This document shows, one piece after another, positions 1 through 5,128 of a DNA stretch of 64,000 bases (position 1 is its first letter; each line of letters starts with the position of its first letter). Both the position numbers and the translations under genes were made by a program. Source of the stretch: a virus (Duplodnaviria; Caudoviricetes); the IMG/VR virus record IMGVR_UViG_2622736508_000001. One strand, written 5' to 3'. The notes beneath the pieces are model-generated. The model saw nothing but the letters and a program-made list of their open reading frames with translations. It was not told the DNA's origin and searched no databases.

Positions 1-694
1 GGTTGCGAAAATCTTCAGCCAACCTCCTGTGCTGAACTTCATCAAAACCATTCATCATGTCAATATTCCCGTAATCATTAAAAACGCAATCATATGGAGG
101 ATCCAGGAAAATAAAATCGTCCTCCTCCGCAATTGCAAATATTTCATTATAGTCTACATTGTAAAGTTCAGCGCTTTGTAATAGTAAACTATGTTCTTGT
201 GTAATTAATCTTGTATTTAGATTAGGATAACGACCAAAAGGCACATTGTAATCACCATTGCCATTGTAACGTATCATTCCAGAATACGCAGTTTTATTTA
301 TAAAAAAATAGAGAACACCATCTAAATATGTTTCATCTGGATTGTTAAATAAATTTCTCATCATATAATACAACTCTTCGTTTGCATTTGGAATTCTTTC
401 ATTCGGATGCTCTGATTTTAGTTTTTTATATGCAGATTGATTATCTTCGTATTGTCTCTGTAATTCATTTAGTTGCTCACGCATTTGAGGATATTGATTC
501 CTAAGCTGAAAGTAAAAAGTCATCAGCCTCGTATTTATATCATTAAGAATTGCCCTGTCCGGCTCAATATGAAAATACACTGCACCGCCTCCCAAAAAAG
601 GCTCAATATATCGATCAAAATCATCAGGAATATATTGCAAAAAACGTGGAATTTCTCTTGATTTACCACCTCGATATTTTAATACTGGATTCAT
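1..694 (-). CDS. Dam/DpnM-family DNA adenine methyltransferase (3' end runs off the window)
   Basis: Manual translation from ATG 694 (RBS AGGAGT): MNPVLKYRGGKSREI...YIEPFLGGGAVYF...NKTAYSGMIRYNGNGDYNVPFG...DFIFLDPPY. Not in the ORF track because it is truncated. Confidence 0.9.
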   Translation of the reverse strand, partial: MNPVLKYRGGKSREIPRFLQYIPDDFDRYIEPFLGGGAVYFHIEPDRAILNDINTRLMTFYFQLRNQYPQMREQLNELQRQYEDNQSAYKKLKSEHPNERIPNANEELYYMMRNLFNNPDETYLDGVLYFFINKTAYSGMIRYNGNGDYNVPFGRYPNLNTRLITQEHSLLLQSAELYNVDYNEIFAIAEEDDFIFLDPPYDCVFNDYGNIDMMNGFDEVQHRRLAEDFRN

Positions 695-793
695 TATATC
701 ACTCCTACAATACTATATATAGCGCAAATCAAACACACCAATACTATATACAGTGTTTATTTGCTTGATAGACAATTTTTAATATGTTATAAT

Positions 794-820
794 ATTCATT
801 TTAAAAACAAAAACTCCTGC
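794..820 (-). promoter_or_regulatory. Sigma-H (Spo0H)-type promoter upstream of the Dam methylase
   Basis: GCAGGA-GTTTTTGTTTTTAAAAT(17 nt)-GAAT matches the Bacillus sigma-H consensus AGGA-N17-GAAT. Confidence 0.6.
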
Positions 821-841
821 AATTTTGCTTCCGTTAGCTAC

Positions 842-873
842 AAAAATGCCGCCCCGCCCGAAGGCAGAGCGGC
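842..873 (-). terminator. Rho-independent terminator ending the lysis cassette
   Basis: GCCGCTCTGCC-TTCG-GGCGGGGCGGC followed by ATTTTT. Confidence 0.85.
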
Positions 874-878
874 GATAA

Positions 879-1514
879 TCAGAACAGAAAAAATAGCTTA
901 TTCGTCATAATGGTATACTTTGTTTCCCAGCCACTTTCATTGCCACCAGCATGATATTCAACCTCTATCGCCCGATCCTTGCTAAAATTACGTTGCAGGC
1001 CCACTGGTATATAACTATCTCCGCTGTGCCGGCCATAACCAACGGACCATTCCCAATTACGATAGTTGTTTACCTTGTACACGCCAACTTGCCATTCCGT
1101 TGCCCCGCCAGGCTGCTGAACCTCCTGCGGCGCGGTAAGCGTCCGGTCTGACTTTTCCAGCGCAGCCGGCGGCAAAGTAGGGTCTTTGGCATTTATGCGG
1201 TCAGCTACACCAACCGCAGCCTGCTGTACGGTAGGAGCTTCCACGGTAAAATTATAGATAGGCTGTACTTTCCCAGCCTGCGCCTGCTGGACAGCAGAGG
1301 CTAGCATTTCGGCATTTTGCTTGGATAGCTTCAGCTCGTTCTGCAATGCATTGACGTTTGCCGCCTGCTCTTGGGTGAGTGTGACCGCCTGCTGCAGCCG
1401 TGATTCTTGCGCCTGATTGTAACTGATACCCCAAAGCAAAAGGGCCAGCACAACGGCCAGCCCTACGATGTATTTCCAGTGATTCGCTATAAAACGTTTT
1501 GCCTGATCTAACAT
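879..1514 (-). CDS. Membrane-anchored coiled-coil lysis protein, candidate spanin
   Basis: Last gene of the lysis cassette. N-terminal TM (YIVGLAVVLALLLWGI), Q/A-rich coiled coil, C-terminal amphipathic beta-strands, ends in Phe. Confidence 0.55.
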   Translation of the reverse strand: MLDQAKRFIANHWKYIVGLAVVLALLLWGISYNQAQESRLQQAVTLTQEQAANVNALQNELKLSKQNAEMLASAVQQAQAGKVQPIYNFTVEAPTVQQAAVGVADRINAKDPTLPPAALEKSDRTLTAPQEVQQPGGATEWQVGVYKVNNYRNWEWSVGYGRHSGDSYIPVGLQRNFSKDRAIEVEYHAGGNESGWETKYTIMTNKLFFLF

Positions 1515-1516
1515 AC

Positions 1517-1708
1517 TTACCCCTCCCTTAAAATAGCGGTCACAGTCGATTCAGTCCGCGCTAACGGCACATCAATTTCAGTGCCGCCCTTGACTGAGAT
1601 ATAGCCGGTTGGCTCGCCATTTAGCAATACTGCAGTAAGGTCTTTTGCCATAATACCGGCGGGCAATGCATATATACCGGACCGATCAACTTTTTGCAAA
1701 ACAATCAT
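1517..1708 (-). CDS. Small hypothetical protein in the lysis cassette
   Basis: 63-aa ORF coupled to the endolysin stop (TAATG). Confidence 0.6.
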   Translation of the reverse strand: MIVLQKVDRSGIYALPAGIMAKDLTAVLLNGEPTGYISVKGGTEIDVPLARTESTVTAILREG

Positions 1709-2295
1709 TACGACACCCCCTGATTCCTATACCAATTTGCCTTGCCCCGAATAACATTGCCACCTTCACCCGGCGCCACCCCAGGGAAAAACCATAAATC
1801 CCAACGCTCGCAACTATGCTCCGGCCCATGCCGGCCATCCGGGTACCCATTGGCTCCATATCCAGGATTCAGGCCGTCCTTGTTGTCGGCCGCCTCAGCA
1901 TGCGTCATGACACGTTGCAGATCAATCGTGAGATCAAGCGCTGCTGCCAACACAGCTACAACCTGCGCTGCGGCTTCGATCTGCGCGGGCGTTGGCGGCT
2001 CCAGGCCAAAATTATTGGTAGTGGCGTTATAGGCGCAGGCCAAAGAAATCCCAATTGCTCCGGAATTGCGCCGGTAAGTATGGGATTTAGCTGCGGCCAG
2101 ATCATTTGCGCTGACATAAACGCTGCCATCTGCGTCAATATTTATATGGTATGAATCAAAAAACTGGCCGTAATGGCCAGCCGTCCAATGCAGGTACAGT
2201 TTTACATCCCTGTCCAGCGCCCGGGCTTTATCCCAAAGGTTATTTTTGCTCTGTAAAGCCAGTTCCCGAAGCTCCATTAATGTTACTTTGCGCAT
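1708..2295 (-). CDS. Endolysin, N-acetylmuramoyl-L-alanine amidase (Amidase_2-like), no cell-wall binding domain
   Basis: LYLHWTAGH...YHINIDADG...SHT..RNSGAIGISL...MTHAE zinc-amidase motifs. AGGAGG is best spaced to ATG 2295. Confidence 0.85.
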   Translation of the reverse strand: MRKVTLMELRELALQSKNNLWDKARALDRDVKLYLHWTAGHYGQFFDSYHINIDADGSVYVSANDLAAAKSHTYRRNSGAIGISLACAYNATTNNFGLEPPTPAQIEAAAQVVAVLAAALDLTIDLQRVMTHAEAADNKDGLNPGYGANGYPDGRHGPEHSCERWDLWFFPGVAPGEGGNVIRGKANWYRNQGVS

Positions 2296-2572
2296 TCTCA
2301 TTTCCTCCTTTTACTTGCCGCCATGTATCCAGGCCACGCTTAATTGTATTTGATCCGAGCTGCAGCCCGAGCGCCGTGAGTACCTTGTCCAGCATTGCAG
2401 TAAGGTTTACGGCCGTCTCCGGATACAACAGCATCCTATACACAATAACAATAACAGTTATGGCCAGCATGGCGATGATAACCCGGTTCAGGGAAATATC
2501 CTTGGGATCATAACTTTCAGACAGAACTAAAGGCAGGTTACTGAAAACCTGCCTGATATTTCGCCAGAACAT
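2240..2572 (-). CDS. Holin
   Basis: 110 aa with 1-2 hydrophobic helices and a charged C-terminus, directly upstream of and overlapping the endolysin. Confidence 0.7.
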   Translation of the reverse strand: MFWRNIRQVFSNLPLVLSESYDPKDISLNRVIIAMLAITVIVIVYRMLLYPETAVNLTAMLDKVLTALGLQLGSNTIKRGLDTWRQVKGGNENAQSNINGASGTGFTEQK

Positions 2573-2582
2573 AAGCTCCCTC

Positions 2583-2897
2583 CTAATTTTTAATCAGCCA
2601 CATGATAATGCCCACAAAAAAACCGCTTACTGCACCGAGTAAAGCGGCTGTTCTATAGATACCCGCGATTTGTTCTTTGATCGCTTCGGTCAACTCTTCT
2701 TTGAGGTCTTTACTGGCCAACTGCATATTGTCAAGCCGATGGTGCATAGATTTTGACGATGCTTCCAGTTTTGCAATGGCAATTTCATGGGCGTCAACCT
2801 TTGACCTGCAAGGCTGGCACTGGGACAGCTGCAGATCCTGGCGCGCCTCGATCCGTGTTAATCTATCCAGTATCTCGCGTTCTACTTTTTCATCCAA
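2583..2897 (-). CDS. Coiled-coil protein with C-terminal TM helix (XhlA/antiholin-like)
   Basis: Coiled coil followed by AALLGAVSGFFVGIIMWLI; first gene of the lysis cassette. Confidence 0.55.
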   Translation of the reverse strand: MDEKVEREILDRLTRIEARQDLQLSQCQPCRSKVDAHEIAIAKLEASSKSMHHRLDNMQLASKDLKEELTEAIKEQIAGIYRTAALLGAVSGFFVGIIMWLIKN

Positions 2898-2914
2898 TCT
2901 CTCACCCCCGACAT

Positions 2915-2948
2915 ATAAATAATAGCCGCCCGATCAGCGGCACGGCTC
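2915..2948 (-). terminator. Terminator-like hairpin between tail and lysis modules
   Basis: GCCG-TG-CCCG-CTGAT-CGGG-CGGC followed by TATTATTT. Confidence 0.55.
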
Positions 2949-2968
2949 TCTCGGCATTATTGGTCACC

Positions 2969-5128
2969 TCACATGATAAATGCGTAGCCTGTTTTTAGAC
3001 GCGGGGTGATTTGGACGTTGATGGACTTAAGATATGGTGTTATCCACGGCAGATATCCCAAAGGCAGCCTTCCTTCAAAGTCAGCGTTAACTCCACCTCT
3101 TAGGTTAAAAGTAGTATACTGATTAGTATTATTACTTGTTAATCCAGCTCCGGGATGTAAAGTCTGCCCTGGCGATATTGCTCCTGAAACGCGCACCCCA
3201 GTAGAATAACTGACTAATGTCATAATTTTGTCATCAAAGTTTAACGAAATACCTACCGTGGTAGGCGTGATCGTTCCGGTTGGAGCACCACCTATAAAAG
3301 ATCCGTTGAGTATTAACCTACTTTGACCAGCCCACCAACCATAGTATCCTGGAAGATTGTATAGAGAAGCATTCAAAGTAAAAACTCCCGGCTGAGGAGC
3401 ATAAAACATTTTTGTTGTACTCTCAAAATACCATTTCCCTGAGTCTTTACCACAGCTAGTATACATAGCTTGACAGTAATACTGGGTTCCGGCGTTTCCG
3501 GAAATTGTATCCCCAGAAATAGTCAGAGTTCCAAGTTTATAAACAGTAGCAACCAGGGGAGGCAAGTAGTTTTTGTCTAAATATATAGCAAAATCCAGGG
3601 ATGTTGGAGTAAATATTTCTTGCCATCGCGCAAAAACAATTGAATTGACTGTAGCTGCATCCATTCCATATTCACCGATATTGTCAATAGCTACAGTTTC
3701 CCATGTACTGTTAATAAGAGCTCTCCAGGTTAGGCCTTTGTTAAAGCTAACTAAAATTTTAGCATTTTCAGCTTCAATATTTACTGCCTGTAAGCCCGTG
3801 TAGCGCGCCAAGGGTATACTGGTATAGTTAGTAGTTTTTATGACTGTATCAATTTTACCGTCGGGAACCATAAAACACGGATACTTGGCAGGAGCGTACA
3901 CATAAGCAGGGTTAAATCTATCCCCGTCATAGCCTCCATCATAGCTTCTAAAAAGCCTTTCTACTGTTGTTCTCCTCGTTTCTTCCTTGAAGATTTCAAA
4001 ATCCAGATACTCTCGCGAGCCGTCAGGGTATAGATAGTTAAGTCGGCACGGGTTATTACCTGTCTCAAGCTGGGAAGGCATCACAGTAAACGAAACGCTG
4101 CGCAAGTCAATGTCAGTAGGCTCATAAGGGATTATGACTGTCTGAGCAATTTCCAATTGATAGCGTCCCATCAGCGGAAATCCCTGCGAGTTTGTGGCTT
4201 CAACGGTAACAATCTGGCTCCTGTACTGATGCGTGGGAGTAACCAGCAGCTTGAAACGATATTCGGCGTTAGAGGTAATTACAGGGTCGTCAATAAAGTA
4301 TCCCGGGCAATTAGAAGAAAGACCGGCAGTTATTGGCTCAGCTATTAAAATGCCCAAATGGTTTCTACTCAAAATTCCTAGTTCAATATCATTAGTTAAG
4401 CTACCAGGGAAGATGGAATAAAGCTCACCAAGTTCTACTTGAGATAAATCCATCCCAGCCCATTTTCGGTTTAATCGCTCACCTGGCTCCATGTCAGATA
4501 AAAAAGTGCCCCCGAGGGGAGTTCTAATCACAGGACTGGATTGTGTACTTTCTATTTCACAGCCTCGACTAGCTGAACTACGCTGAGCTGAATCAACTAA
4601 ATCCAATTCAACCCCAGTAAAATTGATGATCTCGTACTCATTTACATCAACATAAGAACCCCAACTTAGGGTAGTGGACCTCCCCCCAAAGGGAATCAAA
4701 ACACTTCCTACTCCGTTAAAACCATTATATACTTGTGTCAACTCTACTCCTGAAAAATCAAACCCAGAATTAAATGCAGTTAAAGTTGTACCAGCTAAAG
4801 CTCTCAGTCCTATTCCAAAATGATATGGAATTCGAACAGCTAAATTATCAATTTCGATAAGTTTAAATCCCCCGGGGTCAGTTACAACCGATATAGGAGG
4901 AGAAACATAGTGTATTCTCAGGTCAGGAGAAGAATAGATTATTAAGTTGGCTGATGACACATTAGAACTTGTAGGAAATTTAAAACCTGCAGCTCTTATT
5001 GTTTTCATGCTTTCTTCGAACAGAGGTAAGTTCGTGAATGCCCCATAACTTGTTGCTGCTGTTGAGTAACCTGCGCTACCTGTTGCATCCCAGTTCCTGT
5101 ATATTCTAGTTATCTCAGCCATGGACAT
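2969..5128 (-). CDS. Putative receptor-binding/tail fibre protein with a SPRY-like domain
   Basis: 719 aa, beta-rich, AT-rich gene at the distal end of the tail module. C-terminal GKWYFE...VGISLNFD...LHPGAG...TFNL..F...LP.GYLPW resembles SPRY/B30.2. Confidence 0.6.
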   Translation of the reverse strand: MSMAEITRIYRNWDATGSAGYSTAATSYGAFTNLPLFEESMKTIRAAGFKFPTSSNVSSANLIIYSSPDLRIHYVSPPISVVTDPGGFKLIEIDNLAVRIPYHFGIGLRALAGTTLTAFNSGFDFSGVELTQVYNGFNGVGSVLIPFGGRSTTLSWGSYVDVNEYEIINFTGVELDLVDSAQRSSASRGCEIESTQSSPVIRTPLGGTFLSDMEPGERLNRKWAGMDLSQVELGELYSIFPGSLTNDIELGILSRNHLGILIAEPITAGLSSNCPGYFIDDPVITSNAEYRFKLLVTPTHQYRSQIVTVEATNSQGFPLMGRYQLEIAQTVIIPYEPTDIDLRSVSFTVMPSQLETGNNPCRLNYLYPDGSREYLDFEIFKEETRRTTVERLFRSYDGGYDGDRFNPAYVYAPAKYPCFMVPDGKIDTVIKTTNYTSIPLARYTGLQAVNIEAENAKILVSFNKGLTWRALINSTWETVAIDNIGEYGMDAATVNSIVFARWQEIFTPTSLDFAIYLDKNYLPPLVATVYKLGTLTISGDTISGNAGTQYYCQAMYTSCGKDSGKWYFESTTKMFYAPQPGVFTLNASLYNLPGYYGWWAGQSRLILNGSFIGGAPTGTITPTTVGISLNFDDKIMTLVSYSTGVRVSGAISPGQTLHPGAGLTSNNTNQYTTFNLRGGVNADFEGRLPLGYLPWITPYLKSINVQITPRLKTGYAFIM

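Follow-up and report, generated by a model that had tools for sequence, protein, structure and literature searches.

The window analysed here is a stretch of 64,000 nucleotides from a virus of the Caudoviricetes (IMG/VR virus record IMGVR_UViG_2622736508_000001), and its candidate gene X encodes a protein of the lysis cassette (protein X). Protein X is best read as a late lysis protein of phages of Negativicutes, a diderm Firmicute class. We rate at slightly better than an even chance the structural interpretation that it is a one-piece, spanin-like bridge across the envelope, the outer-membrane end of which would be an oligomeric β-barrel. An earlier reading, made from the sequence alone, had proposed that the last lysis gene of the window codes for a membrane helix, a coiled coil and a C-terminal β-strand anchor, and that this new type of spanin would serve hosts without a Lol pathway.

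The features of the locus are collected in Table 1. An intrinsic terminator starts 6 nt past the stop codon of gene X, which is therefore the last gene of the lysis operon, as had been proposed. XhlA-like, holin-like and Amidase_2 genes lie upstream on the same strand, with tail-fibre genes beyond the XhlA-like gene, and the gene order is that of a Firmicute-style lysis operon. A strong Shine-Dalgarno sequence (GGGAGGGG) is located 5 nt ahead of the ATG of gene X, and the stop codon of the preceding open reading frame (ORF) of 63 residues is located 2 nt before this ATG. Gene X is translationally coupled to the preceding cassette gene. No promoter-like site was found on the minus strand between 2897 and 1514, and gene X therefore lacks a promoter of its own.

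Table 1. Positions of the lysis cassette features and of the segments of protein X in the window
Feature	Position	Strand	Remarks
Candidate gene X	879..1514	(-)	211 residues plus stop; from the ORF list; member of phrog_10797
N-terminal membrane helix, residues ~13-32	1419..1478	(-)	AlphaFold2 helix 13-40; read as an uncleaved signal anchor, N-terminus cytoplasmic
Predicted periplasmic α/β domain, residues 41-150	1065..1394	(-)	Folded alone: pLDDT 89.3, pTM 0.77
C-terminal four-strand amphipathic β module, residues 151-211	882..1064	(-)	Ends in Phe; YadA-anchor-like
Shine-Dalgarno sequence of gene X	1520..1527	(-)	From inspection of the sequence
Intrinsic terminator at the end of the lysis operon	848..873	(-)	11-bp stem with 9 GC pairs, then a T run
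63-residue ORF between endolysin and gene X	1517..1708	(-)	No membrane segment, no family match
Endolysin, N-acetylmuramoyl-L-alanine amidase (Amidase_2)	1708..2301	(-)	Pfam PF01510 1.9e-11; phrog_5867 endolysin 1.6e-35
Holin-like membrane protein, 110 residues	2240..2572	(-)	Hydrophobic segment in the ORF
XhlA-like protein, 104 residues	2583..2897	(-)	Coiled coil and C-terminal membrane helix; weak matches only

Predicted structure of protein X

The whole of protein X was modelled with AlphaFold2 from a 103-sequence alignment, with a predicted local distance difference test score (pLDDT) of 87.4 and a predicted template modelling score (pTM) of 0.69. The model consists of a helix (residues 13–40), a confidently predicted region (41–150), four strands and a poorly defined tail (203–211). 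The chain contains no Cys and its last residue is Phe211. The membrane segment, the four strands, the terminal Phe and the absence of Cys that had been listed from the sequence are all present in the model and the ORF translation. The absence of Cys is a feature of this protein and not of the whole family, in which 100 of 227 full-length members are Cys-free.

The N-terminal apolar stretch is found family-wide and has a median length of 19 residues, although it is 14 residues or shorter in 18% of the members. Its N-terminal side is net positive in 83% of members; on the other side come H, Q, R, K or N, and a small-x-small cleavage site is not seen. This composition favours a helix that stays in the membrane as an uncleaved signal anchor.

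Residues 41–150 (pLDDT > 90) contain short helices (48–51, 54–61, 65–79, 96–108 and 116–119) and a β-hairpin (124–133/139–148). The same secondary-structure elements are kept when these residues are modelled alone, and the region is therefore taken as an independent domain. The earlier reading had placed a coiled coil at approximately residues 37–81. Inner-membrane spanins (i-spanins) have an N-terminal membrane helix and a helical or coiled-coil periplasmic domain. The model has the helix 13–40, and residues 37–81 are helical in it, but it breaks them into three short helices, which pack with helix 96–108 and the hairpin 124–148 into one compact domain and not a long coil. Searches of the PDB with the domain gave a best VIA match of Z 2.6 and no Foldseek match at E 1e-3 or better, and in the ESM Atlas relatives of its own family were the only matches. 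On these models, the middle domain is predicted to be a new fold, compact and distinct from a long coiled coil. The spacing between the end of the membrane helix and the hairpin motif is 92–115 residues (5th–95th percentile) in subfamilies that share only ~23% identity, which is easier to explain if both ends of the protein are fixed.

The helix and the spacing bear on a different reading, in which protein X acts at the outer membrane only: the leader would be cleaved and the mature protein would form a small oligomeric barrel or pore with a periplasmic head. Such a disruptor would have the same C-terminal outer-membrane-type features (see below), and it agrees with the short apolar stretches of the 18% and with a compact domain that, when folded, is too short to bridge the envelope. 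We regard it as unlikely. The median length of the apolar stretch is 19 residues, basic or aromatic residues come after it and no conserved small-x-small site is seen; in addition, the helix-to-module spacing is kept across the divergent subfamilies.

The four strands of the C-terminal module comprise residues 154–163, 166–176, 181–189 and 195–202 (pLDDT 77–89). Weighted column profiles across the family show that the two-residue periodicity is strict in all four. One face of the strands is 75–99% hydrophobic, with aromatics near the strand ends; the other face carries Gly, Ser or charged residues. The hairpin strand that precedes the module (V-x-V-Y-K-I-N) does not alternate and is part of the soluble domain. 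In 388 of 419 full-length family members the chain closes with Phe or Trp (F + W background 4.3%), in line with a C-terminal β-signal for the β-barrel assembly machinery (BAM), which ends in an aromatic residue. The shorter subfamilies stop directly after strand 4 with an alternating end (e.g., QWKIHF or YTVAEW), while the subfamily of protein X adds eight residues past strand 4 (T-D/N-K-L-F-x-L-F).

The module resembles the anchors of trimeric autotransporters in its modelled structure, as the earlier reading had supposed, and the aromatic end is seen family-wide. Foldseek gave no significant E-value, with a probability of 0.95–0.97 to the YadA (2lme) and Hia (2gr7, 3emo and 2gr8) anchors and of 0.85 to the AtaA anchor (9vnj). 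The AtaA anchor is also the best VIA match (Z 5.3), with a root-mean-square deviation (rmsd) of 2.5 Å over 55 residues. Seven of 10 structural neighbours in the ESM Atlas are Bacillota proteins with PF03895 (YadA_anchor), and phage proteins annotated in BFVD as YadA-like anchors superpose on the module at ~2 Å over 53 residues. When the module was aligned by hhalign with 14 YadA anchors taken from Negativicutes genomes, the four strands were in register over 53 columns (E 3.4e-4), with a probability (37.6%) below the threshold for homology. The module has the four-strand meander of anchor geometry, in a match that covers few residues and comes from a flat Z list. Judged from the models, it looks like a YadA-type anchor and would be predicted to work like one; membership of the PF03895 family is not established. 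The top full-length Foldseek rows, TylM1/DesVI methyltransferases, were dismissed (template modelling score 0.2, rmsd 18 Å).

The YadA-like anchors in BFVD come from several Proteobacteria phages, for example Yersinia phages TG1 and phiR1-RT (90 and 122 residues), Proteus phage P59 (194 residues) and Escherichia phage Phieco32 (265 residues); the module is thus not rare in phages. YadA_anchor genes are absent from the genome in which the window lies. In the autotransporter adhesins of Negativicutes (loci L018–L031), a coiled coil follows the YadA anchor, in several together with an SLH-type segment, and the anchor is not C-terminal. Short members of the protein X family (63–101 residues) were considered as stand-alone anchors and rejected, as they are fragments of genes and lack a signal peptide.

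Amphipathic strands need not lie in a membrane, and protein X could be an inner-membrane-anchored lysis accessory with a soluble β domain, for example a regulator or scaffold of the holin or endolysin, or a binder of the wall or of the OmpM tether. The terminal aromatic residue would then be part of an interface between proteins and not a membrane signal. Four-strand meanders of soluble proteins (colicin M-like bacteriocins, C-terminal lobes of TylM1-type methyltransferases and NlpE) do occur in the flat Z list, and the alternating polarity would fit a two-layer soluble fold. However, the middle domain folds without the sheet, which leaves ~17 hydrophobic side chains on one face uncovered. In addition, protein X was found only in diderm hosts, with no match to three subfamily queries among 50,697 phage records, and accompanies five unrelated hydrolase families instead of being tied to one enzyme (both described below). 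We consider this accessory role quite unlikely.

A very improbable reading is that the strands engage BamA and stall there in a hybrid barrel, so that the connection between the membranes would pass through BamA and the assembly of outer-membrane proteins (OMPs) would be blocked late in infection. The conserved β-signal-like terminus would suit such a tether, hybrid-barrel pieces of BAM/EspP and TamAB are among the structural neighbours, and a substrate with its other end held in the inner membrane may be difficult to insert fully. Nothing points to it specifically, however; the neighbours come from the flat list, and a block of BAM would probably be slow relative to the timing of lysis.

Four strands cannot close a barrel alone. 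A cyclic oligomer is the only arrangement in which strands 1 and 4 would be adjacent, and coevolution between them was therefore examined. The mean-field couplings, computed for the C-terminal module from 373 sequences (effective number of sequences 166), recover its three hairpins. The strand 1–strand 4 pair 157–201 ranks third in the type to which protein X belongs (type A), and the pair 138K–183E, which shows charge swaps, ranks fourth in the Veillonella type (type B). The two pairs have a consistent antiparallel register. As support for barrel closure, these couplings are no more than suggestive.

Relatives, lysis cassettes and host

Protein X matches phrog_10797 at 6.4e-39 (residues 11–202), as do 87 of 88 diverse relatives. 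This is its own family and carries the label function unknown. Three subfamilies were searched separately; the homologues number 246 at 90% clustering and 261 clusters at 50% identity. All hits with an organism name are from Negativicutes or from uncultured Caudoviricetes contigs, and the named hosts fall into nine genera (Pelosinus, Sporomusa, Anaeromusa, Anaerospora, Propionispira, Veillonella, Megasphaera, Selenomonas and Pectinatus). Among sampled genomes of the host's class, 51 of 201 (30 of 80 genera) contain the family, often in several or degraded copies. The three subfamily queries gave no tblastn match in 50,697 deposited phage genomes, those of monoderm-Firmicute phages included. 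Literature searches yielded no paper that links phrog_10797 or any Negativicutes phage gene to spanins, or that describes such a protein. Family copies are frameshifted or interrupted by stop codons in decayed prophages of Sporomusa, Pelosinus and Anaerospora (L010, L012, L013, L015 and many others).

Gene X stands behind the endolysin wherever the cassette is intact. The order Phage_holin_4_1, Amidase_3 and gene X is found in L005, L008, L011 and the Veillonella-type loci L032–34, and L006 has an XhlA-like gene, a holin-like gene, a VgrG3-like_C hydrolase and then gene X. A T7-like genome (L035/36) has the order Phage_holin_4_1, Amidase_2, gene X, small terminase and TerL. T7 itself carries its spanin genes 18.5/18.7 in the same neighbourhood. 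This locus (L035/L036, 3115-6562) is from a T7-like phage of a Selenomonas-type host. In the IMG/VR contigs, the gene just upstream of gene X encodes a peptidoglycan hydrolase in 23 of 26 cases (GH25 in 12, Amidase_3 in 5, Amidase_2 in 5 and Glucosaminidase in 1). Across the loci, gene X adjoins endolysins of five unrelated families; its association is therefore with lysis in general and not with a particular enzyme. Phage_holin_4_1, XhlA-like proteins, Amidase_2/3 and GH25 are common in monoderm Firmicute phages; gene X is an extra gene in the phages of a diderm lineage.

The cassette data also bear on whether the protein takes part in lysis at all. An envelope protein of lysogenic conversion or superinfection exclusion could be terminal in the late operon by position only; gene X is the terminal gene, it adjoins a prophage methyltransferase gene and many of its Negativicutes copies are degraded. 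The lack of its own promoter and the translational coupling to the cassette stand against this, as does a position behind the endolysin that is kept in three subfamilies and in the T7-like, lytic-type genome. A function outside lysis appears to us exceedingly improbable.

The earlier reading had reported no nested lipobox ORF. A scan from every start codon on both strands of 600–3100 found none, which bears this out. The lipobox hits in seven related loci comprised a lipoprotein of the host, encoded outside the prophage, a VIAGC that is not conserved in the family, in the N-terminal membrane helix of a Sporomusa homologue (L006:3959-4585), a lipobox-like match at an internal start of the L035 holin gene and out-of-frame ORFs that were judged spurious. 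Among the weak PHROG hits of the family, the only functional label that recurs is 'Rz-like spanin' (18 member-hits, 8 of the 25 PHROG families listed). These hits cover residues 12–83, with E 0.006–0.06 for protein X and down to 1.5e-4 for its relatives.

The window is part of a prophage in a 4.13-Mb host genome that is 99.7% complete. Matches to Omp85/BamA (172 bits) and to LpxC (322 bits) are present in this genome, and a LolA match was not found. The host is diderm, so that the chief objection to a spanin-like protein, a monoderm host, falls away, and the supposed lack of a Lol pathway agrees with the genome. LolA and LolB were found in no Negativicutes genome, and LolA was found in all Halanaerobiales genomes analysed (Antunes et al. 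2016, PMC5007114). The distribution proposed from the sequence, phages of Negativicutes and Halanaerobiales but not of monoderms, stands for Negativicutes, from which all named homologues come, and for monoderm-host phages, where none was found in the 50,697 records; it does not extend to Halanaerobiales, which have LolA and no named homologue.

Proposed envelope bridging by protein X

From the gene position, the host envelope, the distribution and the features of sequence and structure we infer outer-membrane insertion, an oligomeric state, bridging and membrane disruption, in the following order. The N-terminal helix would keep protein X in the inner membrane, with the remainder in the periplasm. 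The host BAM would insert the last ~60 residues, with their Phe/Trp β-signal, into the outer membrane. The anchor in the outer membrane would most likely be a small homo-oligomeric barrel, for which the best precedent is three copies of four strands. Late in infection, protein X may thereby tie both membranes together through the mesh of the cell wall. Removal of the wall by holin and endolysin would free the ~110-residue periplasmic part to take, or return to, its compact fold and to move sideways, and this collapse could draw the two membranes towards each other, with breakage or fusion of the outer membrane. A lipid-free protein anchor would fit these hosts, since they have no LolA/LolB route for outer-membrane lipoproteins. 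The stronger proposal, to which we give a little less than an even chance, is that protein X represents a third spanin architecture: a single chain with an inner-membrane helix, a self-assembling barrel inserted by BAM and a periplasmic domain of new fold as the disruption or fusion machine. It would have evolved in phages of a class whose members are unable to deliver lipoproteins to their outer membrane.

To our knowledge, all described spanins reach the outer membrane via a lipoprotein, and the rules used to search for spanins require a lipobox. A close parallel in design is T1 gp11, a unimolecular spanin (Kongari et al. 2018, PMC6139136). Both gp11 and protein X are single chains encoded by the last lysis gene; both have a periplasmic part of ~100 residues that is partly β-rich, are proposed to have one end in each membrane and are proposed to act after the wall is removed. 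In T1 gp11 the lipobox is N-terminal, for the outer membrane, and the helix for the inner membrane is C-terminal, whereas protein X has the reversed order, no lipobox or Cys and a putative β-strand anchor. There is no sequence similarity between the two. Protein X resembles the i-spanin Rz of lambda in its N-terminal type II membrane helix and in the helical segment predicted to come next in the periplasm. It differs from Rz in that the scan of the window found no embedded, overlapping or adjacent lipoprotein partner, in that its helical part is not a long coiled coil and in that it carries its own outer-membrane-type module. The YadA, Hia and AtaA anchors (PF03895) have in common with protein X four long amphipathic strands that agree in topology and size, a Gly inner face and an aromatic end, and superpose on it at 2.0–2.6 Å over 52–55 residues. 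Unlike them, protein X has no Pfam match, pore helix or stalk, and its N-terminal part is predicted to be held in the inner membrane, where theirs leads to an exported passenger.

Spanins have been proposed to act after the endolysin removes the wall, and approximately one in eight phage genomes of Gram-negative hosts has no recognisable spanin (PMC6139136). For such spanin-less phages, one speculative sentence, given without an example, suggests that an OMP could act as an outer-membrane spanin, or o-spanin (Kongari et al. 2018, PMC6139136). That suggestion and the present reading of protein X have in common an outer-membrane anchor made of protein; in protein X the putative anchor is fused to an inner-membrane part in one chain.

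Several observations weigh against the envelope bridge. For the anchor, the structural matches are short (~55 residues), and the VIA list is flat (Z 5.3 to 4.2) and mixes many pieces of outer-membrane barrels with soluble β-meanders. No YadA_anchor match was obtained by hmmscan at E up to 0.1 for protein X or up to 0.01 for 88 relatives, and the hhalign probability to the YadA anchors is low. Autotransporter anchors have a pore helix, where in protein X the β-hairpin 124–148 precedes the strands. Its last eight residues (TNKLFFLF) are conserved in a helix-like and not a strand-like manner and have low pLDDT. The type A pair of the coevolution analysis is mostly a split between two clades (G-K versus S-T/V/I), and the couplings between strands 1 and 3, which are not adjacent, are about as strong as those between strands 1 and 4; for these reasons we do not count the couplings as proof of barrel closure. 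At the other end of the protein, the retention of the N-terminal helix is read from composition. In between, the folded periplasmic part is far too short to cross the periplasm; bridging would therefore need an extended state, of which the models give no sign.

Even so, no alternative accounts for the restriction to diderm hosts, the aromatic C-terminus and the constant spacing together as well as the envelope bridge does. If the bridge is real, the last step of lysis by Negativicutes phages would be explained by a spanin with a protein anchor. Among the Negativicutes are Veillonella, Megasphaera and Selenomonas, which live in the human mouth and gut, and Pectinatus and Megasphaera, which spoil beer. 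Such a spanin would also provide a search rule, namely a membrane helix, ~100 residues and a four-strand module with Phe or Trp as its last residue, encoded immediately after an endolysin gene, and protein X would be a small and genetically simple substrate for studies of outer-membrane insertion in diderm Firmicutes. Gene X also marks the host of an uncultured phage as a diderm Firmicute.

Neighbouring genes and prophage remnants

Two genes in prophage remnants of the window's genome (L002:1102-1662 (-) and L003:1147-1734 (-)) share the N-terminal membrane segment of protein X (56% identity over 43 residues). Their periplasmic part is different and they end in a hydrophobic helix (LLWIVGVGVGGYLLMK), with no β module; both match phrog_37316 (function unknown). 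They look like a second design in the same cassette position. A homologue of the 63-residue ORF is located upstream of the gene X paralogue in L002 and is absent from the other cassettes examined.

The holin-like ORF of 110 residues has no Pfam or PHROG family match; a homologue is located in L006, between the XhlA-like gene and the endolysin. The weak matches of the XhlA-like protein are to Pfam XhlA (E 0.054) and to phrog_1193 'hemolysin' (2.7e-4). Directly downstream of the lysis terminator, a gene for a D12-class N6-adenine DNA methyltransferase (2-694 (-), Pfam 1.3e-33) runs off the end of the window. The spacer between this gene and the terminator contains a near-consensus promoter-like site (765-793) on the opposite strand.

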